A stretch of DNA of 64,000 bases from Phycisphaerae bacterium (GTDB taxonomy: Bacteria > Planctomycetota > Phycisphaerae > Sedimentisphaerales > UBA12454): contig JBGOWI010000002.1 in the NCBI GenBank assembly GCA_041478555.1, forward strand, positions 14,622 to 78,621. Direction: 5' to 3'. Below the pieces are notes generated by a model, which was not told the origin of the DNA, searched no databases, and saw only the letters and a list, made by a program, of their open reading frames with translations. The position numbers and the translations under genes are program-made. How positions within the stretch are numbered: the stretch's first letter is position 1; every line of letters starts with the position of its first letter. Below, piece by piece: positions 1,741 to 28,410 of this stretch.

Positions 1741-1759
1741 TAACAACAGAATCGTTGTG

Positions 1760-1795: not shown

Positions 1796-1842
1796 ACAAG
1801 TAATTGGTCGTGCATAATATATGTATGCGGCGAGCGCATACA
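1793..1842 (+). promoter_or_regulatory. Sigma70-like promoter plus operator-like palindrome
   Basis: TTGACA (1793-1798), 16-nt spacer, TAATAT (1815-1820). Directly downstream is TGTATGCG-gcgag-CGCATACA (1822-1842), perfect 8-bp inverted arms. Confidence 0.5.
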
Positions 1843-1912
1843 ATTCGATATATATATGTGAGGTATTATGTATAACAAATCGACATTACATACTATCAGG
1901 AGGGCAAATGTT

Positions 1913-4921: not shown

Positions 4922-4942
4922 TGTAATCAGAGAAAAACCGAA

Positions 4943-4973
4943 GGGGCTGGTCGTTAGGAAACCAGCCCCTTTC
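4943..4973 (+). terminator. Rho-independent terminator (weak T tail)
   Basis: GGGGCTGGT-cgttaggaa-ACCAGCCCC followed by tttcagg. Confidence 0.55.
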
Positions 4974-5032
4974 AGGATTAATCGGGTTAACGGCCGAGGG
5001 ACGAGTGGCCGTGTAGAACGGAGGTTCAATTT

Positions 5033-5911: not shown

Positions 5912-6148
5912 GAAACTGAGAAAGGTCCGGGCCTCGATGTGGCTCGAAGGCACTATAGCAAGCTGCAAAGTGGCGCCGTTACCTGACGCATTAATAAGTA
6001 AATACTGTCATCCTGGTTTGTATTCAGGTTTGTGACAAATAACATAATAGCGGGTTGCCAAACCTCCTTATCGTGGCTAATGAAATAGACTGGACAACTG
6101 ATTCAGATATGTTTTTTTACAGAGCTGCTTTTTTTGAGTTGATTGCTT

Positions 6149-11127: not shown

Positions 11128-11246
11128 ACTCGCTTTAAATTAAACCACGTCTTCGCTTATGGGGAAAGCGGCTGGATTTTGATGGCAATATTGTTAATCT
11201 ACAATTCTTGCGGGATAAAAATTATTTTGGTAACGAAAGGAATGTA

Positions 11247-13451: not shown

Positions 13452-13457
13452 GTCTGA

Positions 13458-15536
13458 ATGATAACGCCTAAAGTTCCAAAGATTATATTTGGCGGAGATT
13501 ACTTTCCTGAACAGTGGCCCCAGGAAATCTGGAAGGAAGATATCCGCCTGATGAAGCAGTCCAATGTAAATATGGTCAGCATTGCCATTTTTACCTGGGC
13601 ACTTCTTCAGCCTGATGAAGATACTTATACCTTTGACTGGCTGGATAAAGTGATGGATCTTATAGCAGAAAATAATATTTATGCCTGTTTAGCCACTTCA
13701 ACGGCAGCTCCTCCTGTCTGGCTGGCCTGTAAGTACAGTGATGTTCTGCCGGTCACAGAATCGGGGCAGAGAATCGATTATGGTTCCCGGCAGGCGTACT
13801 GTATCAACAGCCCTACTTACAGAAAATTCATCCGCAAATTAGCTGAAAAAATGGCCGTCCGTTATAAGGACCACAAGGCATTGGCCTTGTGGCATATCAA
13901 TAATGAGTACGCAAACAAAAACCAAATGTGTTTCTGTGGAAACTGCGAAAAACTTTTTCGAGAGTGGTTAAAGGGAAAATATGAAACCATTGACAGGCTG
14001 AATGAAATCTGGGGTACTGTTTTCTGGGGAGAAAGATACGCTTGCTGGGAGCAGATAAATACGCCCAAGGCCAGTAGCGGCTCAAGGAATTCCACAAAGT
14101 TGCTTGATTATAAAAGGTTCTTAAGTGAAAGCTTTTTTACTCTGTATCTGGAGGAATACAATATCCTCAGACAAATTACGCCGAGTATACCTATTACTAC
14201 TAATTTTGAAGGGGACTGGCGTAAATTTGACCACTCGTTATTCAAAAACCATTTAGATGTGGTCTCGTGGAACTGTTATCCGGACCCGGCCAATCCTGAT
14301 TCGCGCAAATGGGCGGCGCTGCGACATTCTATGATGCGTTCTTTACTGGGCAGGCCATTTATGCTTATGGAACAAGCCCCTTCACAGGTGGACTGGTATC
14401 CGGTGAATATTAATAAACCTCCCGGACTGATGCGTCTGTGGAGTTATCAGGCTCTGGCTCATGGCTCCGATTCGATAATGTATTATCAGTGGCGGGCTTC
14501 CAGAAAGGGCGCTGAGAGATACCACAGTGGTGTAATTCCACATTTCGGTGAAGATTCGAGGGTATTTAAAGAGATATGCAGCTTAGGCAATGAATTGGAA
14601 AAGGCAAAAGATATTGTCGGTTCCGACATAGATTCAAAAGTGGCAATTGTTATGGATAACGATTCATGGTGGGCGATCGATAATCCATACGGTCCTGCCG
14701 GCAGTAAATCCCTTGATAATGAGGTTTTCTGGACCGCCAATGCTCAGCCCTTCCCAACAGTGCTGGTCAGTTATTTTGGCGAGCTGGAATACTATTTTAA
14801 TGCTCTGTATGACCTGAACGTTCCGGTTGATGTTATTCCCGTTCATTATGATTTCTCGAAGTATAAAATCGTTATCGCTCCGCTTCTACATATGATTAAA
14901 CCGGCCTTTAAGGAAGCCGTAGAGAGTTTTGTGAAAAAGGGCGGTATCTTTGTTACGACTTATTTTACAGGGCTGATTGACGAATCTGTAGGCGTATATC
15001 TGGGCGGCTACCCCGGACCGCTGAAAGATGTTATGGGTATCAAGGTTGAAGAATACAACCCATTACCGCCTGGCAGCAGGAACACAATGAAAATGACTGC
15101 GACGCTCAACGGTTTTAAAAAAGATTACGGCTGTTCAGTATGGTGCGATGTCATCCATACGACAGGTGCGAAGGTGTTGGCAGCATTTGCAAATGATTAT
15201 TATGCCGGCAGTCCGTGTTTTACTGAAAATCAGTTTGGAAATGGAAAAGCCTACTATGTAGGTACCAGGCCGGATGAAGATTTTATGAGAGATTTCTTTA
15301 CGAAAATTTTAAAGGAGCAGGAGATTGACTTGCCCGATTTGCCCCAGGAAGTCGAGTTGATGACCAGGTCCAAAAAAGGCAAGTCCTATTGTTTTTACCT
15401 GAATTATGGAGAAAATGAAAAGACAATAAAGCTACCCTCAGGCAGATACGAAGATATACTAACAGGAACTATCTGTGAGCGAACGCTGACTTTGGCTAAA
15501 TATGGTGTATCCATTTTAAGGAGCAAATGGCGTTGA
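13458..15536 (+). CDS. GH42 beta-galactosidase, cytoplasmic
   Basis: GGDYFPEQWPQEIWKEDIRLMKQSNVNMVSIAIFTWALLQP and WHINNEY are GH42 hallmarks; length 692 aa. Confidence 0.88.
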   Translation: MITPKVPKIIFGGDYFPEQWPQEIWKEDIRLMKQSNVNMVSIAIFTWALLQPDEDTYTFDWLDKVMDLIAENNIYACLATSTAAPPVWLACKYSDVLPVTESGQRIDYGSRQAYCINSPTYRKFIRKLAEKMAVRYKDHKALALWHINNEYANKNQMCFCGNCEKLFREWLKGKYETIDRLNEIWGTVFWGERYACWEQINTPKASSGSRNSTKLLDYKRFLSESFFTLYLEEYNILRQITPSIPITTNFEGDWRKFDHSLFKNHLDVVSWNCYPDPANPDSRKWAALRHSMMRSLLGRPFMLMEQAPSQVDWYPVNINKPPGLMRLWSYQALAHGSDSIMYYQWRASRKGAERYHSGVIPHFGEDSRVFKEICSLGNELEKAKDIVGSDIDSKVAIVMDNDSWWAIDNPYGPAGSKSLDNEVFWTANAQPFPTVLVSYFGELEYYFNALYDLNVPVDVIPVHYDFSKYKIVIAPLLHMIKPAFKEAVESFVKKGGIFVTTYFTGLIDESVGVYLGGYPGPLKDVMGIKVEEYNPLPPGSRNTMKMTATLNGFKKDYGCSVWCDVIHTTGAKVLAAFANDYYAGSPCFTENQFGNGKAYYVGTRPDEDFMRDFFTKILKEQEIDLPDLPQEVELMTRSKKGKSYCFYLNYGENEKTIKLPSGRYEDILTGTICERTLTLAKYGVSILRSKWR

Positions 15537-16663
15537 TTGGCCAAGTGAAGAAGATTATGAAATCAAAACAATACTTTTTTTTGACGATTATGATTTTATG
15601 CATTACTCAAACTGTTGCTGCGAAAGATTTTCTCATCGGTGCGGATATATCGGCGTTGACGGTGCTTGAGGAAACTGGTGCGGTGTATCGCGAGAACGGC
15701 GGGCCGAATGACCTTATTGCTATTTTAAAGAATAACGGGTTTAACACTGTACGGCTGCGTCTGTTCGTAAACCCGGACAAAAAAGGTGTTGTTACAAATG
15801 ACTTGCCTTATACCCTGAACCTTGCAAAGAGGGCCAAAGCTCACGGCATGAAATTGTTGTTGGATTTTCATTATTCAGACACATGGGCAGACCCCCAGAA
15901 ACAGAGCAAACCTGCGGCTTGGGAAAACATGTCCTTTGAAGAACTGAAACAAACAGTGCAAAGCTATACTGCCTCTGTCATAAAAGCCTTCAAAAATGAA
16001 AATGTACTTCCGAACATTGTGCAAATTGGTAACGAAATTACCCCAGGTATGCTTTGGCCCGATGGGAAAGTCAGTGAAAAATATGACAATGAACTTCAAT
16101 GGGAGAAATTCAGCTCTTTGCTTAAGGCTGGCATTGCCGGCGTCCGGGCAGCAGCCCCCGATGCCGACCTGAAAATTATGCTTCACATCGATCAGGGTGG
16201 CAAAAAAAGCGTTAGTCAATGGTTTTTTAGCAACATTAATAAGCATAAGGTTCCTTACGATATTATTGGTATAAGTTACTATCCCTGGTGGCACGGGACA
16301 ATTGAAGACCTCAAGGAAAACCTGAACTACATTGCCATGGAACTCAAGAAAGACGTAGTGATTGTGGAAACAGCCTACCCGCATACCACGGATAAATGGT
16401 ATGAACACCCTGAGGAACTGCCATATCCAATGACGCCCCAGGGACAATATGATATGCTTCACATAATTACAAAGACGGTACTCGAAACCCCTGATAAACG
16501 CGGTTGCGGAGTATGCTACTGGTTTCCGGAGTCAGTGCCGGTTGCAAAGCATAATTGGCTGGGAGGTTCTGCCGCTCTGTTTGACTCTGACGGAAATTCG
16601 CTGGCTGGTATCCATGCTTTTGCCGATGCGGCCGGTTCAAGGCAATTCAAAAAAAAGCGGTGA
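15527..16663 (+). CDS. Secreted GH53 arabinogalactan endo-beta-1,4-galactanase
   Basis: Signal peptide ..MKSKQYFFLTIMILCITQTVAA. GADISALTVLEETGAVYRENG, VRLRLFVNP, VQIGNEI and VETAYP are GH53 motifs. AGGAG lies upstream of 15527; an alternative start is 15557. Confidence 0.85.
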   Translation: MALIGQVKKIMKSKQYFFLTIMILCITQTVAAKDFLIGADISALTVLEETGAVYRENGGPNDLIAILKNNGFNTVRLRLFVNPDKKGVVTNDLPYTLNLAKRAKAHGMKLLLDFHYSDTWADPQKQSKPAAWENMSFEELKQTVQSYTASVIKAFKNENVLPNIVQIGNEITPGMLWPDGKVSEKYDNELQWEKFSSLLKAGIAGVRAAAPDADLKIMLHIDQGGKKSVSQWFFSNINKHKVPYDIIGISYYPWWHGTIEDLKENLNYIAMELKKDVVIVETAYPHTTDKWYEHPEELPYPMTPQGQYDMLHIITKTVLETPDKRGCGVCYWFPESVPVAKHNWLGGSAALFDSDGNSLAGIHAFADAAGSRQFKKKR

Positions 16664-16724
16664 GTAGAAGACCGTATCCCGGAAACAAACTGTTAACAAA
16701 TTAAAATCTCGAATTGATGGGTAA

Positions 16725-17678
16725 ATGCTTACTATGAAAAAAACTCTCGTTGTTATGGCTGCAGGAATAGGAAGCAGATATAAGGGATTTAAACAAATAG
16801 ATTCAGTTGGTCCTGATGGTGAATTTATTATTGATTATTCAGTATATGATGCTATTAGAGCCGGATTCAATAAAGTTATTTTTATTATCCGGCGTGATAT
16901 CGAACTGGAATTCAAAGCCACAATTGGCAAACGTATCGCAGGCAATATCGAGATTGTTTATAGCTTTCAGGAACTTAATGATTTGCCAAAGCAAATAGAA
17001 ATTAATCCGGAACGAACAAAACCCTGGGGAACGGTACAGGCGATTTTAACGTGCAGCAAACTTATAGATAGTCCTTTTGCGGTTATTAATGCGGATGATT
17101 TTTATGGTAAAGACTCATATAGAAAATTGTCACAGTTTTTGGATACTGCTTTGTTGGACAAAAGTATTTATTGTATGGTAGGATTTAAGCTTAGTAGTAC
17201 TTTATCTGAATACGGCGGTGTGACGCGAGGTATATGTAAGTCAGGAGAAAATAATATGTTAGAAAGTATTGTGGAAACTTCAGGGATTAGTTATAAGGAG
17301 GGTCAAATCTATTTTGAAGATTTGGCTGGAAATAAGAGAGAATTAAGCGGAGATACTTTAGTGTCAATGAATATGTGGGGGTTTACTCCAACAATATTTG
17401 GATTATTAGACGAAGAATTTCAAATTTTTTTACAATCTTATGCAAAAGACTTAAAACAAGAGCTGGTTATACCAACAACAGTGAATAGCTTGATTACTAA
17501 AGGTAAGGCTTTAGTTAAAGTATTAAGTACTTCAAGTGATTGGTTTGGGATTACATATCGCAGCGATAGAGATGAAGTTAAAACGAGAATTCATCAATTA
17601 ATACAAGCCGGGGAATATCCAAATAATCTTTGGAAAGGATGTCCGTTGCTCTGTCCAGCTGAGCTACGAGCGCAATAA
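16725..17678 (+). CDS. Sugar-1-phosphate nucleotidyltransferase family protein; last 12 codons derive from a tRNA fragment
   Basis: VVMAAGIGSRYKGFKQID is an NTP-transferase G-loop. The C-terminal ..GCPLLCPAELRAQ is encoded by the 34-nt tRNA-derived repeat. Confidence 0.7.
   Translation: MLTMKKTLVVMAAGIGSRYKGFKQIDSVGPDGEFIIDYSVYDAIRAGFNKVIFIIRRDIELEFKATIGKRIAGNIEIVYSFQELNDLPKQIEINPERTKPWGTVQAILTCSKLIDSPFAVINADDFYGKDSYRKLSQFLDTALLDKSIYCMVGFKLSSTLSEYGGVTRGICKSGENNMLESIVETSGISYKEGQIYFEDLAGNKRELSGDTLVSMNMWGFTPTIFGLLDEEFQIFLQSYAKDLKQELVIPTTVNSLITKGKALVKVLSTSSDWFGITYRSDRDEVKTRIHQLIQAGEYPNNLWKGCPLLCPAELRAQ
17643..17676 (-). repeat. 34-nt direct repeat, left copy: 5' part (acceptor, D-arm and anticodon-stem start) of a tRNA-Arg gene
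   Basis: tccgttgctctgtccagctgagctacgagcgcaa is identical base for base to 28962-28995. The reverse complement reads GCGCTCGTAGCTCAGCTGGACAGAGCAACGGA. Confidence 0.9.
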
Positions 17679-17753
17679 CTTTTAAGTGCTTGTAATATAA
17701 ACAGTTTTCGCTCATTTTGTCAACTTTTGAAATGTCCGGAAAATCCAAAAAGT

Positions 17754-17962
17754 GTCAAAAAAGCGTCGGTCGCCACCGGTAAACCACTCCAGTTTCTAAC
17801 TTGTTACTCACTTGTCAACCACTTGTAAGTCTCATTTTTGACCAAAAAACGCGATATTTTTTCCCGTCTGCCAAAGCACACATCATCAGGAGTTACATTG
17901 CCGATGGCTTCATGGTATTGCCGGCTGTTGTACCACTTTACGAACCCGGCAATTTCTGTGTC
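17754..17962 (-). mobile_element. IS remnant: the last ~50 codons of a DDE (rve) transposase plus the element end
   Basis: Minus-strand translation reads ..[52 protein letters not shown], a typical rve C-terminal tail. No upstream catalytic part is present. 17754-17857 is repeated at 28823-28915. Confidence 0.75.
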
Positions 17963-18355
17963 AGAGACATAACTACTGCCGCCTATCCGGACTGCCGGGT
18001 CAGTTTCGAGGCTGCTCGCGGCCAGATACTTGGTTTTGCCGGTCTGGTTGGTGCGGGTCGAGGCGAAATGGCTCGTGCTGTCTTTGGTGTTGATCAGGTA
18101 CTGTCCGGTTCGATTACCTTAGTCGGTCGTGAACTGCAAATTTGCTTTGCTAAAGATGCTATTAAAAACGGAATCTATCTTGTGCCGGAAAACCGTAGAA
18201 AACCAGGTCTTGTTGTTGAAATGTCTTTCCGAGAAAACATAACGCTTTCCGATTTTGAAAGCCATGCTGCGATTGGCTTGATAAAAGGCCGGCTGGAAAC
18301 CATCACAGCTCGGTCCCAATCTGAAGCGCTAAGTATTAAAGTGCCGTCTGTTGAA
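17963..18355 (+). pseudogene. Internal fragment of a sugar ABC importer ATPase (RbsA/MglA-type second NBD)
   Basis: ..[55 protein letters not shown].. lacks an N-terminal NBD, and an LSGGNQQK signature is missing after ~18355. Track ORF 17801-18472 is a chimera of this fragment and the antisense IS tail. Confidence 0.7.
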
Positions 18356-18468
18356 ACTTTGTTTTTGGATATGGCGAAAATAGTGTTTAGCGAAACAGGT
18401 GCACTACCAGATTATTCCGGTGCAGTAGAAATTCTCACTCGGCTGAACAAAGTTGACCGGCATTATGA

Positions 18469-18864
18469 TTAGGGCAACGGGGGTGTTACCCAGCCTGTTT
18501 TGACGCTGTAAATAAAACTGCCTCTCGAACGAGTGCTGATATAAACGCAGTGGTTATGGACAGCGAAAGTGGCTTCGATTTTGTTGCTGTCTGGCGTTTT
18601 AATCTGCACCGCACCGTATTGTGCCAGACTGTTTCGCATCTCAGTTCCAAGCTGCAATATTTGTTCGTCAGAAAAACCTGCCCGCCGCATTATTTGCACA
18701 ATATCTTCGGCATTCAAGGCTATAATGTCCCGATTGCTTAAAGGCATAAGCCTAAGCCCGGTATTTGATAACCTTGTGGACTCGCAACTGACCAAAATGA
18801 CTACACCTGTCAACAAAATCAAAATGAAAACAACATTTGTCAACTTATGCCTAATCGGTTTCAT
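18469..18864 (-). CDS. Small lipoprotein, last gene of the secretin operon (pilotin candidate)
   Basis: The signal ends in lipobox ..VVILVS|C (Cys27). It starts 20 nt after the secretin stop on the same strand. No recognisable family. Confidence 0.7.
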   Translation of the reverse strand: MKPIRHKLTNVVFILILLTGVVILVSCESTRLSNTGLRLMPLSNRDIIALNAEDIVQIMRRAGFSDEQILQLGTEMRNSLAQYGAVQIKTPDSNKIEATFAVHNHCVYISTRSRGSFIYSVKTGWVTPPLP

Positions 18865-18884
18865 AGCTGCCTGATTTTCTATTG

Positions 18885-21800
18885 TTATTTATTTAATTGT
18901 TCCTCAAGCTTCTGCTTGAATTCATCTCCAACAGACTCTATTGGCTTTTGTTCTTCGGTTGGCAACCCTGACAGTCGTGACCTCACCTCAGGATCCGGTA
19001 TCAAATGTGCTGTAACAAATATAGCCACTTGTTGAGAAGCTTCCCGATTGGTCTCATTGCGGAACAGCCCTCCCAGTCCTGGCACACGGGAAAGACCCGG
19101 TACGTTCTGTTTGGTTGAGTAGGTCTCGCTCTTTTTAAGGCCTGCTACAGTAACTGTTCCACCATCCTGGATTCGCATGGTATTTTTGACCGTGCGTCTG
19201 CTGACAACCGGGTAATTATCAGTACTACGCATTACAATGTCACTAACCTCAATAGCCAGGTCAAGCGTGATATCGCCGTTTTCTCCGATATGAGGAGTGA
19301 TATTTAATATAGTTCCATATTCAATCTTTTCCAATTCTGCAGGGTTGTAGTAGTAAGGAGCACCTTCCATAGCCTTTGGCAGCAAAGAATAGTATTCCTC
19401 GGTAGTAATTTTAATTTCAGCCTGTTTACCGTCCTGCGCAAGGACCTGAGGACTTGACACTATTGTTGCTTCACCATTTTGCTCAAGAAGGTTCAGAGTT
19501 AATTCCAGCGAATTCGTAAATTCCTGATTCGTTGCATATCCGATCTGGATACCCCATGGCCACTTGGAGCCGACGCCAGCACCGCCTCCATGTATATACG
19601 AACTGGAGAAAATACCGGCCTTAATCTTTGGCCAGCCCCATTCAATACCGAGGTCCAGCAGGTCACTGTTTTGCATTACGACAATTCGGGCATCAAGCAT
19701 AATATGACTTGGTGCTTTGTCAATTTCTTTGAGGTCCGTTTCTATACGCTCTATCAAAGCAGACGGCGCCGTAACACAAATGGTTCCAGTATCAGGATAA
19801 GCCTGGACGTAATTGGCAAAGACAGGTGATAGAAGTTTTACAGCTATATCAGCCTTGAGATAATTTAACTTTATGGACTTTGTCCGGCTTGAAGCCGGAA
19901 AAGCAGCGTCTTTCGGATTAGGTGAGCTGACCAGGTAGTAATCTGGTGTCTTCTTCAGTACATAGCCAGTACCAGCCAGAACTATCTCAAGGGCTTTATC
20001 AAGCGGTACCTCCTTAAGCTCGCAGGTAATCAGGCCAGAAATAGTCTGGTCGGGAATGATTATAATTCCCGCCTGCGAGGCAATGTCCTGCAGAACCTGA
20101 CGCAACTCAGTATCAACAAACACGTTGCTTATGAGAGGTTGCTGAGGTGCCGGCTTTTCAGGAATTTCTGTTGTTTTTTCCTGCTGTTTTTGCGGTTCTG
20201 TAGCTGTTTCAGTTGTTAAATTTGTCGGGGCACCTTCCTCGCTCTTAAGTTGCTCTGGCTGTGATTCTTCAACTTTCGGTTCGGCAGCGGGCTCAGTAAT
20301 GGGTTCAGTTTCTGGTTCCATTACTTGCTCAGTTTGTGAATTAACTTCGGGTACAGCTTCCGGTTCCGCTGTCGCTTTGCTAACTTCCGAGCCCTTAGTT
20401 TTCTCAGGCAGAGGCTTCTGCTCTTCAGTAATTACCTCTTCTTTTTTCTGCTGCTCTGCAGTTTCCTGCTGTTGAGGAAGCTTTGGTGTTTCTTCTTCCT
20501 TTTCGACGATATTTGAAGTAACATTGATATATCTCTTGCTGGGCGGTGAGAACATATAACCTGCTTTTGTTGGCGTAACTGTTCCGGACCAGCCATAGTC
20601 GACGGTTAAATGATATTCACCATTGGCATTAGTCGTATCGGAGCTTCCGCCATTGTCGGCTGATACCAACACTCCTTCAGTAGGCACGCCGTCAAAGATA
20701 ATTTTACCTGAGATGGTACAGATAATTAAGGTGGCGTTGTAGTTTTGATTGCTCAGATTCTCTATCACTTTGCGATATTCTTGCTTTGGAGCTTCGAAGG
20801 TATAACCGTCCTTGATGGGTGTAATCGTGCCGCTCCAGCCATGCTTAACCAGAAGCTCATACTGACCGTTCGCATTGGTTTTTGCCGAACCTCCCGCATT
20901 GCTTGCGTTTATTGAAACATCCTCAACGGGTTTTTGACCGCGGGTAACCGCGCCGGCAATGGCATAGGTCAGTATCTGAGCCTGATAGTTCTGCGGCTGG
21001 TCTTCCGCAACTTTTGGGTATATTTTTTTGGCTGGTTCGAAAATGCAGCCTTCTTTTACAGGTGTAACTGAACCGCTCCATCCATAATCGACAATAGCGC
21101 TGTAATAGCCTTCTTCATTGGTAATCGGCTCTCCCGGCAAACCCTTCATGACAACGCTGCTTATCGGCGTATCAGCGGCTATTTTGCCGGATATGATAAA
21201 GCTCATCAGCTCCGGAGTATGGTTCCGCACCTGATTTTCTGTTACAGACTCATATATTCTATTGGCAGGATTGAAGCGATAGCCTTCCTTTGTCGGCGTA
21301 ACGGTGCCGCTCCAGCCATAGCCGACCGTTGCAGCGTACTGGCCGTTAGCGTCAGATGTTGGATTACCTGGCAGACCTTCCATTACCACGCCGTCAATAC
21401 CGACCGAGCCGGAAACAGTATAAGTAAGCAGCTTTGCGGTATAGTTCTGAGTCTGATGCGTGGTAACGGGCTCGTATTTTTTGTTAACCGGTTCAAAGTT
21501 ATAACCCTTCTTTGTTGGCGTAATGACACTGCTCCAGCCGTAGTTGACGGTCGAGCTGTAATAGCCATTCTCATTGGTAACCGGATCGCCCGGCAGCCCA
21601 TACATAACTACGCCGCCTAAAGGTGAGTCGCCGATTGTAATTGTACCGGAGACAGTGCACGTTAATATTTCTGCGGTATAGTTCTGATTGTCTATGCTTG
21701 TTGTAACCTCAGTATATTTGCGGCTTGAGAGGTCAAAAGTATAACCTTCTCTTTTCAGAGTAACTTCGCCGCTCCAGCCGTAATTAATTGAAATAGTATA

Positions 21801-22454
21801 CCGTCCTTTTTCATTGGTTGTGGCTGAACCGCCGCTGTTGTTGGCCGAAACAGATACGCCTTCCATCGGAACACCGCCTATGGTTACTATCCCGGAAATA
21901 GCAAAGCTCAACAGTGAGCTGGTGTAGTTTTGGTTGGCCTCCGGACGGGTTATGTTTGCATAAGTGCGGTTGGCCGGCTTGAACACATATCCTTCTTTTA
22001 TCGGCATAACCGTGCCACTCCAGCCGTGTCCGACAAGGGTATTATAGTTGCCGTCTTTGTCGGTTACCGGCTCGCCCGGCAGCCCACTCATTACCACACC
22101 GCTGGTGCCCACTGAACCGGAAATCTGGTAATTAATCAGCGAAGCTGTGTAGTTCTGGGCGGTTTGGTCGGCAGTAACAGGTTCATACTTTTTGCTGCTT
22201 GGCTCGAAGTTATAACCTTCTTTTGCCGGCGTTACCGTGCCGGACCAGCCATATTCGATTGTGACGCTGTAATTGCCTTTGTCATCGGTAACAGGATTAC
22301 CGGGGAGGCCTTTCATTACGACGCCATCCAGACCTGCTGTGCCTGAAATAGTGTAGGTTATTTTTGTCGCTTTGTATCCGAAACACAAAGTGCTATTGAG
22401 AAGGACACAAAGGACCAATCCGACGCTTAAAATTTTAACTGTATTTTTTGGCAT
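18885..22454 (-). CDS. Atypical secretin: signal peptide, 8 beta-sandwich repeats, acidic P/E/T/Q linker, N0/STN-like domain, secretin N-domain and C-terminal secretin domain
   Basis: The C-terminal ..GGTVTVAGLKKSETYSTKQNVPGLSRVPGLGGLFRNETNREASQQVAIFVTAHLI is a secretin hallmark. RQVLQDIASQAGIIIIPDQTISGLITCELKEVPLDKALEIVLAGTGYVLKK is STN/N0-like. IKLNYLKADIAVKLL..ICVTAPSALIERIETDLKEIDKAP is Secretin_N-like. Confidence 0.88.
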   Translation of the reverse strand: MPKNTVKILSVGLVLCVLLNSTLCFGYKATKITYTISGTAGLDGVVMKGLPGNPVTDDKGNYSVTIEYGWSGTVTPAKEGYNFEPSSKKYEPVTADQTAQNYTASLINYQISGSVGTSGVVMSGLPGEPVTDKDGNYNTLVGHGWSGTVMPIKEGYVFKPANRTYANITRPEANQNYTSSLLSFAISGIVTIGGVPMEGVSVSANNSGGSATTNEKGRYTISINYGWSGEVTLKREGYTFDLSSRKYTEVTTSIDNQNYTAEILTCTVSGTITIGDSPLGGVVMYGLPGDPVTNENGYYSSTVNYGWSSVITPTKKGYNFEPVNKKYEPVTTHQTQNYTAKLLTYTVSGSVGIDGVVMEGLPGNPTSDANGQYAATVGYGWSGTVTPTKEGYRFNPANRIYESVTENQVRNHTPELMSFIISGKIAADTPISSVVMKGLPGEPITNEEGYYSAIVDYGWSGSVTPVKEGCIFEPAKKIYPKVAEDQPQNYQAQILTYAIAGAVTRGQKPVEDVSINASNAGGSAKTNANGQYELLVKHGWSGTITPIKDGYTFEAPKQEYRKVIENLSNQNYNATLIICTISGKIIFDGVPTEGVLVSADNGGSSDTTNANGEYHLTVDYGWSGTVTPTKAGYMFSPPSKRYINVTSNIVEKEEETPKLPQQQETAEQQKKEEVITEEQKPLPEKTKGSEVSKATAEPEAVPEVNSQTEQVMEPETEPITEPAAEPKVEESQPEQLKSEEGAPTNLTTETATEPQKQQEKTTEIPEKPAPQQPLISNVFVDTELRQVLQDIASQAGIIIIPDQTISGLITCELKEVPLDKALEIVLAGTGYVLKKTPDYYLVSSPNPKDAAFPASSRTKSIKLNYLKADIAVKLLSPVFANYVQAYPDTGTICVTAPSALIERIETDLKEIDKAPSHIMLDARIVVMQNSDLLDLGIEWGWPKIKAGIFSSSYIHGGGAGVGSKWPWGIQIGYATNQEFTNSLELTLNLLEQNGEATIVSSPQVLAQDGKQAEIKITTEEYYSLLPKAMEGAPYYYNPAELEKIEYGTILNITPHIGENGDITLDLAIEVSDIVMRSTDNYPVVSRRTVKNTMRIQDGGTVTVAGLKKSETYSTKQNVPGLSRVPGLGGLFRNETNREASQQVAIFVTAHLIPDPEVRSRLSGLPTEEQKPIESVGDEFKQKLEEQLNK
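20505..22364 (-). repeat. Eight tandem ~78-aa coding repeats (CarboxypepD_reg/prealbumin-like beta-sandwich) in the secretin N-terminal region
   Basis: Signature [IL]xYx[IV]SG....GVxMxGLPGxPVTxxxGxYxxxVxYGWSGTVTPxKEGYxFxPxxxxYxxVxxxQxNQNYTA is seen 8 times (aa ~31-650). Confidence 0.85.
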
Positions 22455-22456
22455 AT

Positions 22457-24127
22457 TTAGCCCCCTTTAATAATAGGCTCAATAACTTCAACAATTCTCT
22501 GGCCACCTCTGCCAGAGACTTGTATGGGTACTATTTTGGTTGCTTTTCCGCCGCCGCCATGCTGCATAATTGCCTCGAGACGATATACGCCGGCAGCGAT
22601 TCCGGAAAAATCAAGTATTCCGGAGAAGTTTCTGATTTCAAGCGGCAGCATAAGACCTGTCTCGCCGGTCAGTAATATGCTTTTCACCATCGTGCCTTGA
22701 GGCGTTGTGAGTTCGGCTGTGCATCGTGGGCTCAGATGTATCGTTCCTATATTGCCGAATCTGCCGATGATTGCATAGCGGGAATTTCCTTCATCAGCAA
22801 CCGTTACCTTCATTGCCTGAGCAATAGGCTGAGCTTTCTGCTGTTTGTTCTCAAGGCACAGTATCGCATTTGTCAGGCCGGCGTTCTGACCGTCAGTGCT
22901 GTATTTGGCTGACAGTGTAATATCCGAATAATAATTGCTTTTCATTGATTCTGCCCTGGGCATATTTGTAACAATGCGAACGCCCTGCGAAGCACCAGGC
23001 CTGAGCGTGAATTTGTCGGGAACAACCTTGACCCATTCGGAACAAACCAGCTCCTCACCCTGCAGCTCGCCGAAGGCAACGCCCTTCAAAACGGCCGGCG
23101 TTGTCGCAGCAGCCACAATATCAATGGTGCTGTCCGAGGCATTTCGAACCTTTAGTACCGCCGACCGTGTTGCCCCGGGTGCGATGCTTATGAACAGCTC
23201 CGGCGGTTCCAAATCGAGCGCCGCATCAGCAGCAGCTTTCTTAATAGCCGGGTCGCCAACAAAGTCTATCTCTTTCTCAATAGGTTTTGCTCGTCTTCCA
23301 TCTATGTAAAGTTTGCCGTTTAATTTGTATTTCCCCGACGGCAGCGACCGGCCTATATCACTTTTTAAATCCAAGGTTATGCCGGGAATAATTCCGACTT
23401 CCTTGATTTTTGCGGTAGTGATGTTGCGCCAATGGCCGCCGGAGAATACCTGAGCGGTTATACCGCCGGTAAGACGTGAAAATTTTTTGCCGTTGTTTTC
23501 TACCTTCATTGACAGAAGGGTTGTTGCGGCTGATTGTTCGGCTGGCATTTTAAACTGCATATCGACATCGGTCAGCTCCACCTTCTGGAGCATTGTGCGG
23601 CCCTGTATCTCGACAAGAATTGGGATTAAAAACCGTATGATTATAGCGCTGCCGTTTGCATCCGGTTTTGGTCTGGTCTGGATAGTTATACCAGCGATGT
23701 AAAATCCCTGGGCGCGAGAAGGCACTCTAACGGCAAATTCGACTGCTCCTCCGGAAAGAGGTGCAAGTTTTATGCTGTCATTTTTAAGTTTTATCCATTC
23801 TCGACAGGAAGGAACTTCGGACGTGTTAACATCAGAACCCTGTTCGATAACTCTCGGACTGCCGTCTTCAGATTGAGTTATATCGACTACGCCTATGTCC
23901 ATTGTCATTACCTTGTTAGGCTCTTCATTTAGGACATGTATAACTTGTGTGATTTTATTGCCGGCATACGGTTCAAGTTCTATCTTCATAGGCCTGACAC
24001 GAAACTTGTCGGCCCAGGTCAATGGTGCCAAGTAGAGAACAACGGCAAGAGCACACAGCCTCCACAGTGTGTAGTAGTTATAAATCGTCAGAACCTCATT
24101 TTTCTTCTGAGCTTTCATATCACCCAA
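22457..24127 (-). CDS. Secreted 556-aa protein made of an internally duplicated two-domain beta-rich unit (Ig-like; PapD-chaperone/DUF916-like by pattern)
   Basis: Signal ..LCALAVVLYLAPLTWA|DKF. Unit 1 is aa ~45-290 and unit 2 aa ~300-556. The units share ..C[RS]EW[IV]K...D.[IF].L.P......V...V..P.. and a second domain ending in G.Y.L.. . Its stop lies 2 nt before the secretin start. Confidence 0.8.
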   Translation of the reverse strand: MGDMKAQKKNEVLTIYNYYTLWRLCALAVVLYLAPLTWADKFRVRPMKIELEPYAGNKITQVIHVLNEEPNKVMTMDIGVVDITQSEDGSPRVIEQGSDVNTSEVPSCREWIKLKNDSIKLAPLSGGAVEFAVRVPSRAQGFYIAGITIQTRPKPDANGSAIIIRFLIPILVEIQGRTMLQKVELTDVDMQFKMPAEQSAATTLLSMKVENNGKKFSRLTGGITAQVFSGGHWRNITTAKIKEVGIIPGITLDLKSDIGRSLPSGKYKLNGKLYIDGRRAKPIEKEIDFVGDPAIKKAAADAALDLEPPELFISIAPGATRSAVLKVRNASDSTIDIVAAATTPAVLKGVAFGELQGEELVCSEWVKVVPDKFTLRPGASQGVRIVTNMPRAESMKSNYYSDITLSAKYSTDGQNAGLTNAILCLENKQQKAQPIAQAMKVTVADEGNSRYAIIGRFGNIGTIHLSPRCTAELTTPQGTMVKSILLTGETGLMLPLEIRNFSGILDFSGIAAGVYRLEAIMQHGGGGKATKIVPIQVSGRGGQRIVEVIEPIIKGG

Positions 24128-24170
24128 TTGACTTTTTTAACACTTTTTCTCTATATTATCTGTCTTGCCT

Positions 24171-24199
24171 ATATTACCATTTTTGTTAAAAAAAGTCAA
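24171..24199 (-). promoter_or_regulatory. Sigma70-like promoter of the 556-aa/secretin/lipoprotein operon
   Basis: The minus strand reads TTGACT-17 nt-TAATAT, about 45 nt upstream of the ATG at 24127. Confidence 0.5.
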
Positions 24200-24378
24200 T
24201 TTTAAGGCCATACTCTCTGTTTATTTTGCCTGTTTTACCAAGATAGGATTAGTTTCAGACTAATAAAAGCGTTTTTTTAGGACTTTGATTCAGGTATTGT
24301 CACTATTTTTCCGGTACCCCTCTCTCCGAGCCTGAATTTAAAAGTAGGTATGACGATTTTTTTTGACTGCTGGGTTTT

Positions 24379-24485
24379 TATACCGCACCTATTTAAAAAG
24401 TATATCTTTGGTAAAACGTAAGTATCTTTTTAATAAGTTCTTGAATACAATGATTGGGGCGCCGAAATTAAATAGGTGCGGTATA
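24379..24485. repeat. Perfect 18-bp inverted repeat with a 71-nt spacer
   Basis: TATACCGCACCTATTTAA (24379-24396) and TTAAATAGGTGCGGTATA (24468-24485). Confidence 0.9.
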
Positions 24486-24490
24486 ATCTA

Positions 24491-24531
24491 TAAAAAAACA
24501 GGAAGGGCTTTCAGTTAATCAACCCTTCCTG
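24491..24531 (-). terminator. Rho-independent terminator after the 169-aa subunit gene
   Basis: The minus strand reads CAGGAAGGG-loop-CCCTTCCTG followed by TTTTTTTA. Confidence 0.8.
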
Positions 24532-24555
24532 CTTGAACTTTTTCAGACCTGCTTT

Positions 24556-25065
24556 TTACAGATTGTCATTCACAGTCAGCAATACTGTTGCGACCCGCTG
24601 AACGTGAGGACTTGAAGGTATGTAAGTAATGTCCACGTTGTTCACTGCTGCGCCGACATAAAATATCCTGCCGACCGGTGGCGGGGCGGGAATATCAAAT
24701 GCCATCTCATCAGTATCATCTTCCAGTATCCACTCAGCTCTGTTCTGAGGCAAATTCTGCGGATAGTCGGCAAGAGCAACCAGATACTTTGCAGTTGGTC
24801 CCAGTGATGGACCGAAGGGGACTATCATAACTGTAACCAGAACCGGAAAGTTATGCGTCATAGTTACGGCAGTATAGCCACGGTAAAGCGGATGAACACC
24901 AGATGGGTCGCCGAGTGTAAGTAGTATTTCTGCCGGGTCAATTGTAAGGATTACTGTTTTGTCAATCAGCATCACAACAGGAATTTGCGCTTGAGCCAAT
25001 ATCCCACCAGCAAATGCCGGAGCTGCTGTCAAAGCAATTGCTGCTAATGTCAGTATTTTTTTCAT
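24556..25065 (-). CDS. Small secreted beta-rich protein, putative fibre subunit (paralog of 25982-26488)
   Basis: Signal MKKILTLAAIALTAAPAFA|GG. The mature protein begins with an alternating hydrophobic stretch (IPVVMLIDKTVILTIDP) and ends VATVLLTVNDNL. It is collinear with its 168-aa paralog. Confidence 0.8.
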   Translation of the reverse strand: MKKILTLAAIALTAAPAFAGGILAQAQIPVVMLIDKTVILTIDPAEILLTLGDPSGVHPLYRGYTAVTMTHNFPVLVTVMIVPFGPSLGPTAKYLVALADYPQNLPQNRAEWILEDDTDEMAFDIPAPPPVGRIFYVGAAVNNVDITYIPSSPHVQRVATVLLTVNDNL

Positions 25066-25164
25066 TGTTTCTCGACTCCTTTCTTAGATTAAGTTTTGCT
25101 CCAAAAGACCGAATAATTAACCTGATGAGGCTGGCCATAATTTCTTTGTTCTAACCTCCGATTT

Positions 25165-25374
25165 TTAACCTCCCTTCTCCCCTGTTTTTCGTGAGTTAAT
25201 AACACCTTTATAGTAAGAATCAGATGTCTGCTCTCCGTAGTGAGAAATACTGCCAAGTTTGATTTCATCAGATACAGAAATGCTGGCGAATGGTTCAAGA
25301 GGGTATGGCTGTGCCTGCAACACTGCTCCACCCCAGAGGCGGAACATCAAAGTTACTGACAACCTCCGTGCCAT
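25165..25374 (-). pseudogene. Truncated copy of the 145-aa subunit gene (first ~50 codons retained)
   Basis: MARRLSV...LEPFASISVSDEIKLGSISHYGEQT aligns with EPFASISVPDKIDLGSASQYGQQT of 26842-27264 and then diverges to a stop. The flanks show that a few hundred bp present in cassette 2 (the rest of the subunit gene plus part of the long leader) are missing here. Confidence 0.6.
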
Positions 25375-25405
25375 CTTCGCTCCTTCCCTAATTTATCCTA
25401 TTCCT

Positions 25406-25435
25406 TTACTATGCCAGCCTTTTTGAAATTGTCAA
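25406..25435 (-). promoter_or_regulatory. Sigma70-like promoter of subunit cassette 1
   Basis: The minus strand reads GGGTATTGACAATTTCAAAAAGGCTGGCATAGTAA. The same -35 context is repeated at 27410-27420. Confidence 0.4.
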
Positions 25436-25746
25436 TACCCAAACCTCCTGTTTTTTCTATTTTATATAAGTTCCCTATTTATAATTATTAAGGATAAAAA
25501 CAGATAGCATAAATTTAATCATCGAGTGTCCGCCGTTCGTTTAGCACCTCAAAGAGGTAGGGGATCGCGTCAAACTGTTGCGGTTGCGAGGCTCGTTTCG
25601 TATTACGTTGTACGATTGCGTCTTAAATGACATTTCACGATAAACGCAGCCGTAACGGGCATCGCAACCAATTAGTTAAATTTCCCCTGTATCTTTACTT
25701 CTCTAAAAATCGGCGTAATCTGTTTAATCAGTGATTGATAAACACA

Positions 25747-25786
25747 ATAAAAAAGCAGGAAGGACTAATTACTTAGCCCTTCCTGC
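25747..25786 (-). terminator. Rho-independent terminator after the 168-aa subunit gene
   Basis: The minus strand reads GCAGGAAGG-loop-CCTTCCTGC followed by TTTTTTA. Confidence 0.8.
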
Positions 25787-25981
25787 TTAAACTTTTTCAG
25801 ATTGCAGGATTTTTTAAAATCCTACCCTCTTTGCCGCATCATTGCAGCCGCTTACTGTTCATACTGCAGAGTACTTATTTCCTGCAGATGAAACAACGTT
25901 GTTACATCCGTTACGAACTTTACATTTTACCCTTGTATCCTCCGAAGCTTTAGCGAAGGAGGGTAACAATACTCCTGCTCT

Positions 25982-26488
25982 TTACAGATTGTCACTTACT
26001 GTCAGCAATACTGTTGCAACCTGCTGAGCAGCAGGACTTGAAGGTATAAAGCCAATGTCCACATTAGCTACTGCTGCACCGACATAAAATAGCCTACCGG
26101 CTGGCGGGGCGGGAGTCGTGAAGTCCATGTCGTCGGTATTGCCTGCTGCTTGCCACCCAACGTACGTTTGAGGCAAATTAATCGGGAAGTCGGCAAGAGC
26201 GACATGATATGTGGCAGCTGCTCCCAGTGATGGACCGAAGGAGTTTATCAATGCTGTAACTGTAACTGGGAAGTTATGCGTCATAGTTACGCCAGTATAG
26301 CCACGATAAAGCGGATTACCTAAATTCGGGTCGCCTATCGTAAGTAATATTTCTGGCGGGTCGACTGTAAGGTTTACGGTCTTGTCAATCACCATCATAA
26401 CAGGAATCTGCGTTTGGGCTAATATCCCGCCGGCGAATGCCGGAGCTGCTATCAAAGCAATTGTTACTAATATCAGTAATTTTTTCAT
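25982..26488 (-). CDS. Small secreted beta-rich protein, putative fibre subunit (paralog of 24556-25065)
   Basis: Signal MKKLLILVTIALIAAPAFA|GG. THNFPVTVTALI and a C-terminal VATVLLTVSDNL are shared with the paralog. Confidence 0.8.
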   Translation of the reverse strand: MKKLLILVTIALIAAPAFAGGILAQTQIPVMMVIDKTVNLTVDPPEILLTIGDPNLGNPLYRGYTGVTMTHNFPVTVTALINSFGPSLGAAATYHVALADFPINLPQTYVGWQAAGNTDDMDFTTPAPPAGRLFYVGAAVANVDIGFIPSSPAAQQVATVLLTVSDNL

Positions 26489-26841
26489 TGTCTTAACTCC
26501 TTTCTTAAGTTAAGCTTTGCCCTTGTAAGGCCGATAAACAGCCTGACAGGACTAACCATAATTAGGTGTTCGGGACTCTCTTTTGGGTCTCGAACTCTAC
26601 TGCAGCGGGCATATCCGCTTGGGCGACTGGGTGGGTTGCCCGCTCTTTCTAACTCCACCTGAGCCGCAGCCTGCATCTTGTTTACAGCCTAAAGACCAGG
26701 CCGGTTTCTTTGGGCTGTTGCATCGCCTCTCGTTTTTTGTCCTACCCTCCTTTCTCCCCTTGCGAGTTTTTTCTTCTATAGGTTAATAACATTTTTTAAA
26801 TGAGCTTTATTTACACGCAACTACGCTGTTGCGTCTGTTTT

Positions 26842-27264
26842 TCAGGGTTCAGCCATTATGGTAATGACCAGAGTGCCTGTATATTCTCCTGCCGAGTCGC
26901 TGGATTTGATATCAATAGTGAACTTTAGATTTATATCCACATCGACGCCTTCAGGAGGAGTGCCTGACGAGACTAATGGCGGCACCATTTCAACATTGGT
27001 TCTTTCCTTCGGAATAAAACCTCCGGCAGGACTTGCAAACGCTCCTCCGATTGATGCGATGATACGATGAGGACAATTAGCGGTTATATGTACTTTTATG
27101 GTGGAATTAAATGTTTGCTGACCATACTGGCTGGCACTGCCGAGGTCGATTTTGTCGGGTACGGAGATGCTGGCGAACGGTTCTGCCTGTAGAGTAGTTC
27201 CTCTCCCCAGGCAGAATACTAAAATTACTGCCACAAATAGTATTATGTATCCACTCCGTGCCAT
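26842..27264 (-). CDS. Small secreted protein with SCPU/fimbrial-subunit-like features
   Basis: The track ORF starts at 27279; ATG 27264 has GGAGGAGCGAAGG upstream and matches the paralog start. Signal ..ILVFCLGRGTTLQA|EP. IKVHITANCPHRIIASIGG and the C-terminal SAGEYTGTLVITIMAEP resemble spore-coat-U/Csu-type and type-1 pilin ends. Confidence 0.75.
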   Translation of the reverse strand: MARSGYIILFVAVILVFCLGRGTTLQAEPFASISVPDKIDLGSASQYGQQTFNSTIKVHITANCPHRIIASIGGAFASPAGGFIPKERTNVEMVPPLVSSGTPPEGVDVDINLKFTIDIKSSDSAGEYTGTLVITIMAEP

Positions 27265-27387
27265 CCTTCGCTCCTCCATATATTTATCCTGTTTTTTCCT
27301 TTCTTTAGTTGAAACGTTACATTTTCAAGGTTGAAATTGCCGATAATACAAAAACTTATGCTCGTTAAACCATTTCTTATAGGACTT

Positions 27388-27415
27388 ATTTTACCAGCCT
27401 TCTTTAAATTGTCAA
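27388..27415 (-). promoter_or_regulatory. Sigma70-like promoter of subunit cassette 2
   Basis: The minus strand reads TTGACA-16 nt-TAAAAT, within a block conserved with 25406-25440. Confidence 0.45.
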
Positions 27416-27723
27416 TACCCAAACTTCCTAAATTGCCCATTTTTCACCATTTTTCCATTTTGCCATAAAAGGACAAAAAAAAACAGTTTTTATTTCAAAA
27501 AATTTGGTTAACTGCTTTAGCTAAAAGTGGTTATATTAATTTGGTGGTATCGGATAAAAACTACTTCTTAATGTAGACTATCTTGTTATTTTAGAATGAG
27601 GTGTTTCTTGAGCAGTATTATTATGTGAATATAGGCAGAAAATATAACCTGTGTTAAGCAACGTGTGATTACAAAACACTTTCTTTTAGGCGAAGAGCGG
27701 TAAAACTTAAAGACAAGCAGCCG

Positions 27724-28410
27724 TCAAGAATTAGAGTTGTTAGCATCATCCACAAAAAACTCGTTTTGGCTCAACCTCTCGAAAAAATCATTTTCTTGGG
27801 ACAGAGTCTCGTTTTGCTCCGTAAGCATCGTGTTCTCATCGGCCAGATGAGTAGTTTTCTCCGCAAGAGATGCATTTTCCGCTGTGAGCCTGTTATTTTC
27901 TGCGCTTAGCTGCTCTATCCTGATACAGTACTCTCTTGCAGCCTTTCTGATTTGGTCGTTCAGTATTTCGATTCTCTCTGTAAGTTTTTGATTTTCCTCG
28001 GTAATTGTTTGATTGCCGGCTGCCAGTGTTTCTGTCTGGCCGATGAGTGTTTCGAGCTGATTTTCGAGTGTTTCAATTTGGCTAACAAGTTCCTGATTTT
28101 CACTTAAAAGCTCGGCATTCTGGCTGGAGAGGGTATGACTCTGGGTTTCAAATTCCTCAGCAAGCATCCGGGCTTTCTTCTGTTCGAGGCTCAGGTGTTC
28201 ACTTAACTTTTGTTTTTCCATCTGTAGATGGCTGATGGTCTGAATCATTGTCTGTCTTTCTTTGAACAGCAATGCGGCAGCGCCGGTTAAAGCAAGCAAA
28301 ATTACCGTCAGCAAAGATACCACAATAACTCTGCGCCCCAGGCCTGATTTGTGCATTCTTTTGCCGTCTTCGTTAGACGATGTATCAAATGTATTTTCAC
28401 TGAAATCCAT
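27724..28410 (-). CDS. Bitopic membrane protein with a ~170-aa coiled-coil ectodomain
   Basis: One TM segment (VIVVSLLTVILLALTGAAALLF) is followed by heptad-rich Q/E/N/L sequence (..ENQELVSQIETLENQLETLIGQTETL..). Confidence 0.7.
   Translation of the reverse strand: MDFSENTFDTSSNEDGKRMHKSGLGRRVIVVSLLTVILLALTGAAALLFKERQTMIQTISHLQMEKQKLSEHLSLEQKKARMLAEEFETQSHTLSSQNAELLSENQELVSQIETLENQLETLIGQTETLAAGNQTITEENQKLTERIEILNDQIRKAAREYCIRIEQLSAENNRLTAENASLAEKTTHLADENTMLTEQNETLSQENDFFERLSQNEFFVDDANNSNS

Follow-up and report, generated by a model that had tools for sequence, protein, structure and literature searches.

A stretch of 64,000 nucleotides from a Phycisphaerae bacterium (NCBI GenBank assembly GCA_041478555.1, contig JBGOWI010000002.1, positions 14,622 to 78,621 of the forward strand; hereafter the window) carries a cassette of genes for small exported beta proteins, a tandem beta-sandwich protein, a secretin and a lipoprotein. 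These are real genes, and together they look like a secretin-dependent surface system that has not been described before, although its function is a prediction. We give an even chance to the reading that pilin-like proteins are exported and assembled by this system with the help of a chaperone and independently of ATP, the secretin taking the place of an usher. Every open reading frame (ORF) of the cassette lies on the minus strand, in the order proposed by the initial annotation, and the gaps of 2 nt and then 20 nt in the run of genes for the 556-amino acid (aa) protein, the secretin and the lipoprotein were confirmed on the ORF coordinates. The genes of the cassette are the following (positions in the window).

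26842-27279, minus strand: 145-aa ORF ("s145" type), a small Sec-exported beta protein
25982-26488, minus strand: 168-aa ORF ("s168" type), a small Sec-exported beta protein with a predicted pilin-like Ig sandwich, candidate major subunit
24556-25065, minus strand: 169-aa ORF, a paralogue of the 168-aa protein with 70% identity
22457-24127, minus strand: 556-aa ORF with a TTG start, exported, with two tandem two-domain beta-sandwich units that are WxLIP/PapD-like; candidate periplasmic chaperone or adaptor
18885-22454, minus strand: 1189-aa ORF, secretin
18469-18864, minus strand: 131-aa ORF, lipoprotein, candidate pilotin or anchor

The database form of the 556-aa ORF product starts with MKAQ and comprises 553 aa, which is probably the true length of the protein.

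The canonical unit has the order s145 type, s168 type, protein of about 555 aa, secretin and lipoprotein, and it recurs in more than 100 independent contigs, mostly metagenome-assembled genomes (MAGs) of Planctomycetota. A scan of GTDB with one genome per species gave 29 loci, nearly all of them in Planctomycetota MAGs labelled Sedimentisphaerales, Phycisphaerae or 'Pirellulales'. In a reverse test, the secretin core was used to collect relatives from metagenome contigs, and the best 80 of 192 such relatives form the basis of all counts of metagenome loci given here. The ~555-aa gene was directly upstream of the secretin gene in each of the 41 loci with room upstream, and the lipoprotein gene was directly downstream in 68 of 77, most of the remaining cases being calling artefacts. 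Where there was enough upstream sequence for the small-protein genes, the s168 family was present in 29 of 30 loci, and 26 of the 30 contained exactly one gene of each small type. The divergence among the three large proteins was correlated across loci (rho 0.74-0.89). The linkage of the five genes is tight and exclusive, and the gene set is kept across both the genome and the metagenome loci, as the initial annotation had asked of a genuine system.

The neighbourhoods of the cassette, on the other hand, differ from locus to locus. In the window it is surrounded by glycoside hydrolase genes, in locus L042 (a 78%-identical relative) by oxidative-stress genes (rubrerythrin, ferritin), and elsewhere by genes for ClpB, DNA ligase, glutamine synthetase (GlnA) or sulfatases. 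With such unrelated flanks, the cassette is autonomous and moves as a unit. A distant version was found in L039 (9289-15138), with alphaproteobacterial-type neighbours (hisD, maf, RNase G, infA), and in L034, a MAG labelled Devosia. Its genes encode, in order, proteins of 203 aa, 553 aa, 212 aa and 230 aa, a 564-aa secretin that lacks the N-terminal repeats, and a 117-aa lipoprotein, the last of which matched the lipoprotein profile in L039 (E 5.5e-23). The three small proteins, which flank the 553-aa gene, end with the same kind of strand, G-x-Y-T-A-[ST]-h-x-h. The genus Devosia is believed to have cultured members, and with this distant version cultivable hosts may therefore exist; in the version from the Devosia-labelled MAG, knockouts and electron microscopy may be feasible. 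As to a phage origin, no relative was found in viral contigs, and as to plasmid carriage, there was no match among plasmids.

The 1189-aa protein is a true secretin, as the initial annotation stated. It scored 131 bits against Pfam Secretin (cut-off 27.5) and 29.0 bits against Secretin_N (cut-off 28.2), with a sub-threshold STN match (24 bits, cut-off 28.4), and the solved structures closest to its core were PilQ (E 1.7e-25), followed by GspD, InvG, phage pIV and RcpA. The protein is composed of a signal peptide, eight repeats of about 78 aa, a linker, STN/N0, Secretin_N, the secretin domain and a C-terminal tail of 39 aa. The repeats (residues 30-640) have a G-W-S-G anchor and weak CarboxypepD_reg/TTR matches, and the linker of about 125 residues (about 650-775) is acidic and rich in E, T, P, Q and K. 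Such an N-terminus of TTR-like repeats, together with a long acidic and proline-rich linker, is unusual for a secretin. Since the short secretins (about 565 aa) of L006 and L039 do not have the N-terminal repeats, these are an accessory feature of the long, planctomycete-type secretins. The 131-aa protein has an LVSC lipobox, the Cys of which is visible in nearly all of 26 homologues, in agreement with its earlier assignment as a lipoprotein; it has no Pfam or NCBIfam match. Its lipobox, and its position next to the secretin, where pilotins are found in other secretin machines, suggest that it serves as a pilotin or anchor for the secretin.

The contig L044 (Ga0315294_10000840, 1-2600) matches the window at 99% identity over the final ~290 secretin residues and the lipoprotein gene, and differs upstream and downstream. 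The cause is a strain rearrangement or else a chimeric assembly.

The cassette shares its STN/N0, N1 and secretin domains with the known secretin machines (the type II secretion system (T2SS), type IV pili (T4P) with PilQ, Tad with RcpA, the type III secretion system (T3SS) and filamentous-phage pIV). It differs from them in its eight repeats and long linker, in the lack of viral relatives among the contigs searched, and in that prepilin-type subunits, ATPase, platform, PilMNOP and GspC are missing in and near the cassette. The flanks were covered to at most 10 kb at each locus, and 154 flanking ORFs from about 100 loci were scanned with Pfam. Neither in these nor in the 64-kb window was there a T2SS/T4P ATPase (T2SSE), a platform protein (T2SSF), an usher (PF00577) or a PapD family member, which upholds the earlier statement that usher, ATPase and platform are absent, and no gene for PilMNOP, GspC or an ATPase was seen near any copy.

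It is nevertheless conceivable, if quite unlikely, that the secretin serves at the outer membrane in some type IV filament machine (T2SS, T4P or Tad-like), with ATPase, platform and pseudopilins encoded elsewhere, and that its neighbours are a cargo and a cargo-specific periplasmic adaptor. Some bacteria have secretin genes apart from the genes of their partners, the closest relative of the core is PilQ with GspD next, Planctomycetota carry many prepilin-like N_methyl proteins (one of them at 5033-5911 in the window), and the flanks cover at most 10 kb. The scores for the NCBIfam subfamilies, however, are far below the cut-offs (PilQ 145 vs 284, GspD 136 vs 351, SctC 117 vs 238, MshL 108 vs 250), and by this measure the protein belongs to none of the named subfamilies. 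In addition, the secretin is joined to the ~555-aa gene wherever this could be seen and in most loci also to a lipoprotein gene of its own, the whole cassette moves among unrelated neighbourhoods and reaches a second phylum, and no PilMNOP, GspC or ATPase gene accompanies it. The initial annotation had named as damaging a situation in which orthologous secretins normally reside in complete T2SS or T4P loci; in our sample there was no orthologue inside such a locus.

The ~553-aa protein has at least 103 homologues, all of about 550 aa, and one relative from the Joint Genome Institute had been named 'PapD' automatically. The N-terminal and C-terminal halves are homologous to each other (hhalign 95%, E 2e-8), i.e. 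the protein is internally duplicated, and an AlphaFold2 (AF2) model built on 30 homologues (pLDDT 87.3) has four beta-sandwich domains, preceded at the N-terminus by a helix that is a signal or anchor. When this model was compared with the PDB by Foldseek, the first-ranked matches were arrays of PapD-like ASH domains from ciliary central-apparatus proteins. The best compact superposition was with WxLIP of Enterococcus faecium (9i1y/9i25, E ~1e-10, TMt 0.56-0.58, ~265 columns), and other compact superpositions were with CEP192 and with the CFA/I chaperone (6k73_B, E 5.6e-8, TMt 0.55). By sequence the protein is also closer to WxLIP than to PapD. The score for Pfam WxLIP_PGBD (DUF916) was sub-threshold (23.4 bits vs a cut-off of 27.3), as were those for PapD-like Cep192 domains, and PapD_N and PapD_C gave no match at E <= 1. 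Of the earlier description, a duplicated two-domain unit that begins like PapD-type chaperones or DUF916 proteins, the duplication was borne out, and the model superposes on WxLIP (DUF916/DUF3324) and on a chaperone-usher chaperone, but a PapD relationship was not seen in the sequence.

The signal peptides of the 145-, 168- and 169-aa proteins, read from the sequence, are of the ordinary Sec kind and end with ..LQA|EP and ..AFA|GG, and at E <= 1 none of the proteins gave the N_methyl match of a prepilin (class III) signal. Conserved features of the s145 type are an N-terminal PFxSISV, a central N-C-P-H and a C-terminal AGxYTGTLxxTV. A profile search with this type against 1.84 billion representatives retrieved only 79 relatives, and the 145-aa protein itself had no Pfam, NCBIfam or PDB sequence match. 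The likeness to SCPU subunits that the initial annotation had proposed for it found no support from sequence profiles, none of the SCPU or other pilin kind matching; the family's sole tie to anything named is a DUF4402 match, itself faint, in just 2 of 63 scanned remote relatives, and no mention of DUF4402 was found in the literature searched. The 168- and 169-aa proteins likewise had no match to a Pfam or NCBIfam family, and profile searches with both small families against PDB sequences gave nothing meaningful. The small proteins showed neither a sugar-binding family nor Pfam matches of the Peptidase_M73 type. The s168-type proteins of clusters B and C, from other loci, are homologous (hhalign 98%). 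The mature parts of s145 and s168 aligned with E 1.7e-3 and a probability of 15%, with a common '..h-x-h-x-x-N-[CF]-P..' strand; homology of the two types is unproven by these alignments and would be remote at most.

An AF2 model of s168, built on 10 sequences only, is an eight-stranded sandwich (pLDDT 81). In Foldseek against the PDB the top matches of this model were the PapG pilin domain (E 5.6e-4), the TasA fibre (8aur, E 1.6e-3), FimG, FedF, CsuA/B, CfaB and the Sulfolobus 0406 filament (7pnb). The matches are weak (E 5.6e-4 to 1e-2, TM 0.3-0.5) and include generic Ig domains; even so, to judge from the predicted fold, an enrichment of donor-strand subunits among them is plain. The folds modelled for the ~553-aa and s168 proteins are those of WxLIP or a chaperone-usher chaperone and, weakly, of chaperone-usher pilins, CsuA/B and TasA, and not the unrelated non-fibre folds that the initial annotation had considered fatal to its proposal. 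In both small families, conservation of the mature part is highest in an N-terminal stretch (IPVMMVID or PFASIS) and, at the other end, in the C-terminal strand (VATVLLTV or AGEYTGTL); in the monomer model of s168 the former does not pack as a strand. This pattern fits what donor-strand subunits show, though it is not proof of such a role.

Two giant repeat proteins of about 1920 aa (P0128 and P0201) match the 145-aa profile at positions 69-123 and 14-68, 18 and 6 times, respectively, and Hpf1_C 'YTTT' repeats were found in P0128 and one further scanned sequence. The matches of P0128 and P0201 to the profile are probably compositional rather than homologous.

A less likely explanation of these folds is a non-filamentous surface complex, the diderm counterpart of the WxL/WxLIP clusters of Gram-positive bacteria (Enterococcus, Listeria, Lactobacillus). 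The secretin would export the small proteins and possibly the ~553-aa protein, the latter would be the scaffold, and the complex would be adhesive or serve in binding, with no polymer. WxLIP is a DUF916-DUF3324 pair that has been proposed to bind WxL proteins via beta strand insertion, and in the usual cluster a single WxLIP is accompanied by two WxL proteins (PMC10599100). Here WxLIP is the best compact structural match, accompanied by the sub-threshold WxLIP_PGBD score, a doubled WxLIP-like protein goes together with two types of small secreted beta protein, and the fibre of the favoured reading is a prediction. In contrast, no WxL domain or motif was found in 59 members of the small-protein families at E <= 5, and pilins rather than the WxL chain of 9i25 were among the top 50 fold matches of s168. 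The adaptor of the cassette is duplicated and does not have the C-terminal membrane helix that defines WxLIP, its AF2 model ending in beta strands, and the hosts are diderm, with a secretin and a lipoprotein in the cassette. Finally, conservation of the strands at both termini, high expression and a variable copy number would suit a polymerising subunit better.

The control of the small-protein genes was examined on the DNA of the window, in which the following elements were found.

27388..27415, minus strand: sigma-70-like promoter upstream of the 145-aa gene (TTGACA, 16 nt spacer, TG, TAAAAT; 11/12 matches)
25753..25788, minus strand: strong hairpin 3' of the 168-aa gene, like an intrinsic terminator (16-bp stem and T run)
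25408..25435, minus strand: promoter-like site, duplicated, at the head of the second cassette (TTGACA, 16 nt spacer, CATAGT; 10/12 matches)
25207..25386, minus strand: decayed 5' remnant of a second 145-aa gene, a pseudogene stub (tblastn 48% identity over 66 aa, E 1e-12)
24492..24534, minus strand: terminator-like hairpin 3' of the 169-aa gene (9-10 bp stem, ~15-nt loop, T7-8 run), read from the sequence
24171..24199, minus strand: promoter-like site before the three-gene operon (TTGACT, 17 nt spacer, TG, TAATAT; 9/12 matches, a weak match to the consensus)

The hairpin at 24492..24534 was missed by the hairpin scanner because its loop is longer than 8 nt. The initial annotation had described two promoter-to-terminator cassettes for the small proteins, and the promoter and terminator motifs were indeed found. 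The two apparent cassettes are, however, not separate units; they are the result of a single tandem duplication of the promoter, the 145-aa gene, the 168-aa gene and the terminator. The promoter region at 27386-27460 (75 nt) has a second copy at 25406-25480 with 73% identity, and behind it, upstream of the 169-aa gene, sits the stub, which covers the first ~60 codons of the 145-aa gene (DNA repeat 25217-25296 vs 27104-27183, 71%). The 168- and 169-aa genes are 76-80% identical, the intergenic DNA is duplicated as well, and the hairpin at 25753-25788 (region to 25801) is related to the one after the 169-aa gene, at about 24499-24532 before a T run. The ancestral unit therefore consisted of promoter, 145-aa gene, 168-aa gene and terminator, and the stub behind the duplicated promoter shows that the second copy of the module was partly lost. 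The duplication was not seen in L042, which has a single copy; across loci the copy number of the small-protein genes varies from 1 to 3. In motif content and copy number, i.e. a strong promoter-like site, hairpin terminators and variable copies, the expression logic resembles that of major-subunit genes.

Between the terminator of the 169-aa gene and the promoter-like site of the 553-aa gene lies a perfect 19-nt inverted repeat, TTATACCGCACCTATTTAA, with arms at 24378-24396 and 24468-24486 and 71 nt between them, which could be a regulatory site or the scar of a small mobile element. Matches to the sigma-54 consensus in the window were no more frequent than expected by chance, with no convincing sigma-54 promoter among them. 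Activators adjoin three other loci. In two of these, L006 (1934-7530) and L036 (4821-6173), the DNA directly upstream of the cassette encodes histidine kinases and a sigma-54-dependent response regulator.

On the reading that we favour, i.e. secretin-dependent export of pilin-like proteins, the cassette would work most like the chaperone-usher pili, especially those of the archaic (Csu) and alternate (CFA/I) classes. The small proteins of the 145-aa and 168/169-aa types would be made in excess from their own promoter/terminator units, the motifs of which are present, and their signal peptides would direct them through the Sec system into the periplasm. There the ~553-aa protein would capture them by beta-strand complementation, by analogy with PapD-pilin and WxLIP-WxL pairs. 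The two tandem two-domain units may take one subunit type each; that each half of the doubled adaptor is dedicated in this way is a guess. The complexes would then dock beneath the secretin, and the conserved N-terminal segment and C-terminal strand would join the subunits in the manner of donor-strand exchange; a thin fibre or surface polymer would leave by way of the secretin pore. The lipoprotein could assist as pilotin or anchor of the secretin. As no ATPase is co-conserved, the energy would be supplied by folding and polymerisation, as it is in chaperone-usher pili and curli.

The likeness to chaperone-usher pili extends to several features. Both have small Sec-exported Ig-like subunits, those of the cassette with best fold matches to the PapG pilin domain, FimG, CsuA/B and CfaB and with a conserved N-terminal segment and a C-terminal G-x-Y-x-G-T-h-x-h strand. 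Both have a two-domain beta-sandwich partner, here one that superposes on the CFA/I chaperone, and in both the subunit genes, with terminators, are ahead of the assembly genes and no ATPase is encoded. In contrast, the cassette has a secretin and a lipoprotein instead of an usher, which is found neither in the window nor in the flanks of the ~100 loci; its partner protein, of about 555 aa, consists of two units in tandem and matches neither PapD_N nor PapD_C; and its subunits match no Fimbrial or SCPU profile.

A second group of comparable systems forms donor-strand fibres without an usher (TasA of Bacillus, the Sulfolobus 0406 filament, haloarchaeal tafi and the Pam pili of the candidate phyla radiation). 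They too have Ig-like or jelly-roll subunits that donate strands, two of them (8aur and 7pnb) are among the s168 fold matches, and the Pam operon also encodes putative chaperones of the chaperone-usher kind (preprint 10.64898/2026.03.03.709456). Their hosts differ in that they do not have an outer membrane, and hence do not need a pore. Compared with the TasA/camelysin fibres in particular, the cassette has no SipW-type peptidase and no Peptidase_M73 subunit, and a sequence relation to this group of systems was not detected. In curli (type VIII; CsgG, CsgE, CsgF), an ATP-independent outer-membrane channel and a periplasmic accessory factor export fibre subunits, which are polymerised outside the cell. 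This analogy is in concept only, for the CsgG channel, which is not a secretin, and the amyloid-repeat subunits are unrelated to the cassette proteins.

Several points weigh against the export reading. To our knowledge, every known secretin works with an ATPase-driven machine of the inner membrane, and genes of a T2SS or T4P could be present in other parts of these genomes, beyond the flanks covered; the prepilin-like N_methyl protein in the window is encoded 13 kb from the cassette. Strand complementation and polymerisation are analogies, and no sequence profile ties either small family to the Fimbrial, SCPU, TasA or WxL families. The ~553-aa protein could, furthermore, be a displayed component, as WxLIP is, and not a chaperone. 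Of the initial proposal as a whole, a candidate secretin-dependent fibre system, the parts that were open to refutation by fold, by secretin context and by co-conservation have held, the SCPU likeness of the 145-aa protein is unsupported by sequence profiles, and fibre formation and donor-strand exchange are inferred only.

The literature searched did not describe any secretin paired with components of the chaperone-usher, PapD-like or donor-strand kind, in line with the initial annotation, which was not aware of such a pairing, and no fibre genes of planctomycetes were named. Since the test for an usher and the tests for WxLIP and WxL failed, the secretin belongs to no named subfamily and lacks the usual partners, and the literature is silent, the cassette is rated outside the known kinds of system. 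In all cases known to us a secretin forms the outer-membrane end of an ATP-driven machine (T2SS, T3SS, type IV pili, Tad or phage export), and the donor-strand pili of diderms that we know of all have ushers. A secretin joined to PapD/WxLIP-like and pilin-like proteins would, if the export reading is true, break both rules, and it would tie the Gram-positive WxLIP fold to a diderm export system. A more far-reaching proposal, which we hold to be tentative and slightly less probable than its opposite, is a 'chaperone-secretin' pathway in which Ig-fold donor-strand subunits and a tandem PapD/WxLIP-like chaperone achieve ATPase-free polymerisation via a dedicated secretin. This would be a new class of pilus or surface polymer, the first motor-free secretin, and a candidate genetic basis for some of the fibres of Planctomycetota. 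Four of the five cassette proteins have no Pfam or NCBIfam family. A review of planctomycetes names no genetics for their surface fibres (PMC12673574), and the cassette offers concrete candidate genes, the link to these fibres being speculation.

Because glycoside hydrolases crowd the window, a role in the envelope or in uptake was also weighed, in which a secretin-type pore and periplasmic Ig-domain binding proteins would handle polysaccharide or organise the envelope, the small proteins staying in the periplasm or outer membrane. A polysaccharide uptake system that includes planctomycete pili and an enlarged periplasm has been discussed (PMC12673574), and the eight beta-sandwich repeats on the secretin are like carbohydrate modules. 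Such a role is nonetheless highly improbable: the glycoside hydrolase context is not conserved, other copies being near redox, ClpB, DNA ligase or amino-acid genes, the short secretins of L006 and L039 are missing the repeats, and the small proteins have no detectable sugar-binding family.

The remainder of the window (1-17700 and 29200-63800) is a dense neighbourhood of polysaccharide degradation, a context that is not common to the other copies of the cassette. It encodes GH2, GH35, lacto-N-biose phosphorylase, GH42, GH53, DUF5597 and two GH10 enzymes, and three tandem CBM_4_9/GH30C paralogues are located at 55889-60837. Other genes are those for a LacI regulator, MalK-like and other ATP-binding cassette (ABC) proteins, and three PEP-CTERM proteins.

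A further ORF lies upstream of the small-protein genes.

27724-28410, minus strand: 228-aa ORF, with an N-terminal membrane-spanning segment and a long coiled coil; generic coiled-coil matches only (Pfam, NCBIfam)

It was considered as a core member and rejected, with a homologue in 1 of 38 loci (L011) and in none of the 80 metagenome loci; L042 has a 230-aa gene at the equivalent position, a match in position only. The 228-aa gene is a lineage-specific neighbour outside the conserved core.

Downstream of the lipoprotein gene, eight loci (L016, L020, L021, L022, L025, L033, L040 and L043) have a gene for ClpB of about 860 aa. This protein was rejected as the ATPase of the system, being a cytoplasmic housekeeping chaperone and a lineage neighbour, and its adjacency is most likely lineage synteny rather than a sign of a system component. 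At the edge of the cassette in the window, a 223-codon ORF on the plus strand (17801-18472) overlaps the stop of the lipoprotein gene. Its only match, to ABC_tran, is weak and partial (E 1.3e-4), and the ORF probably represents a pseudogene fragment.

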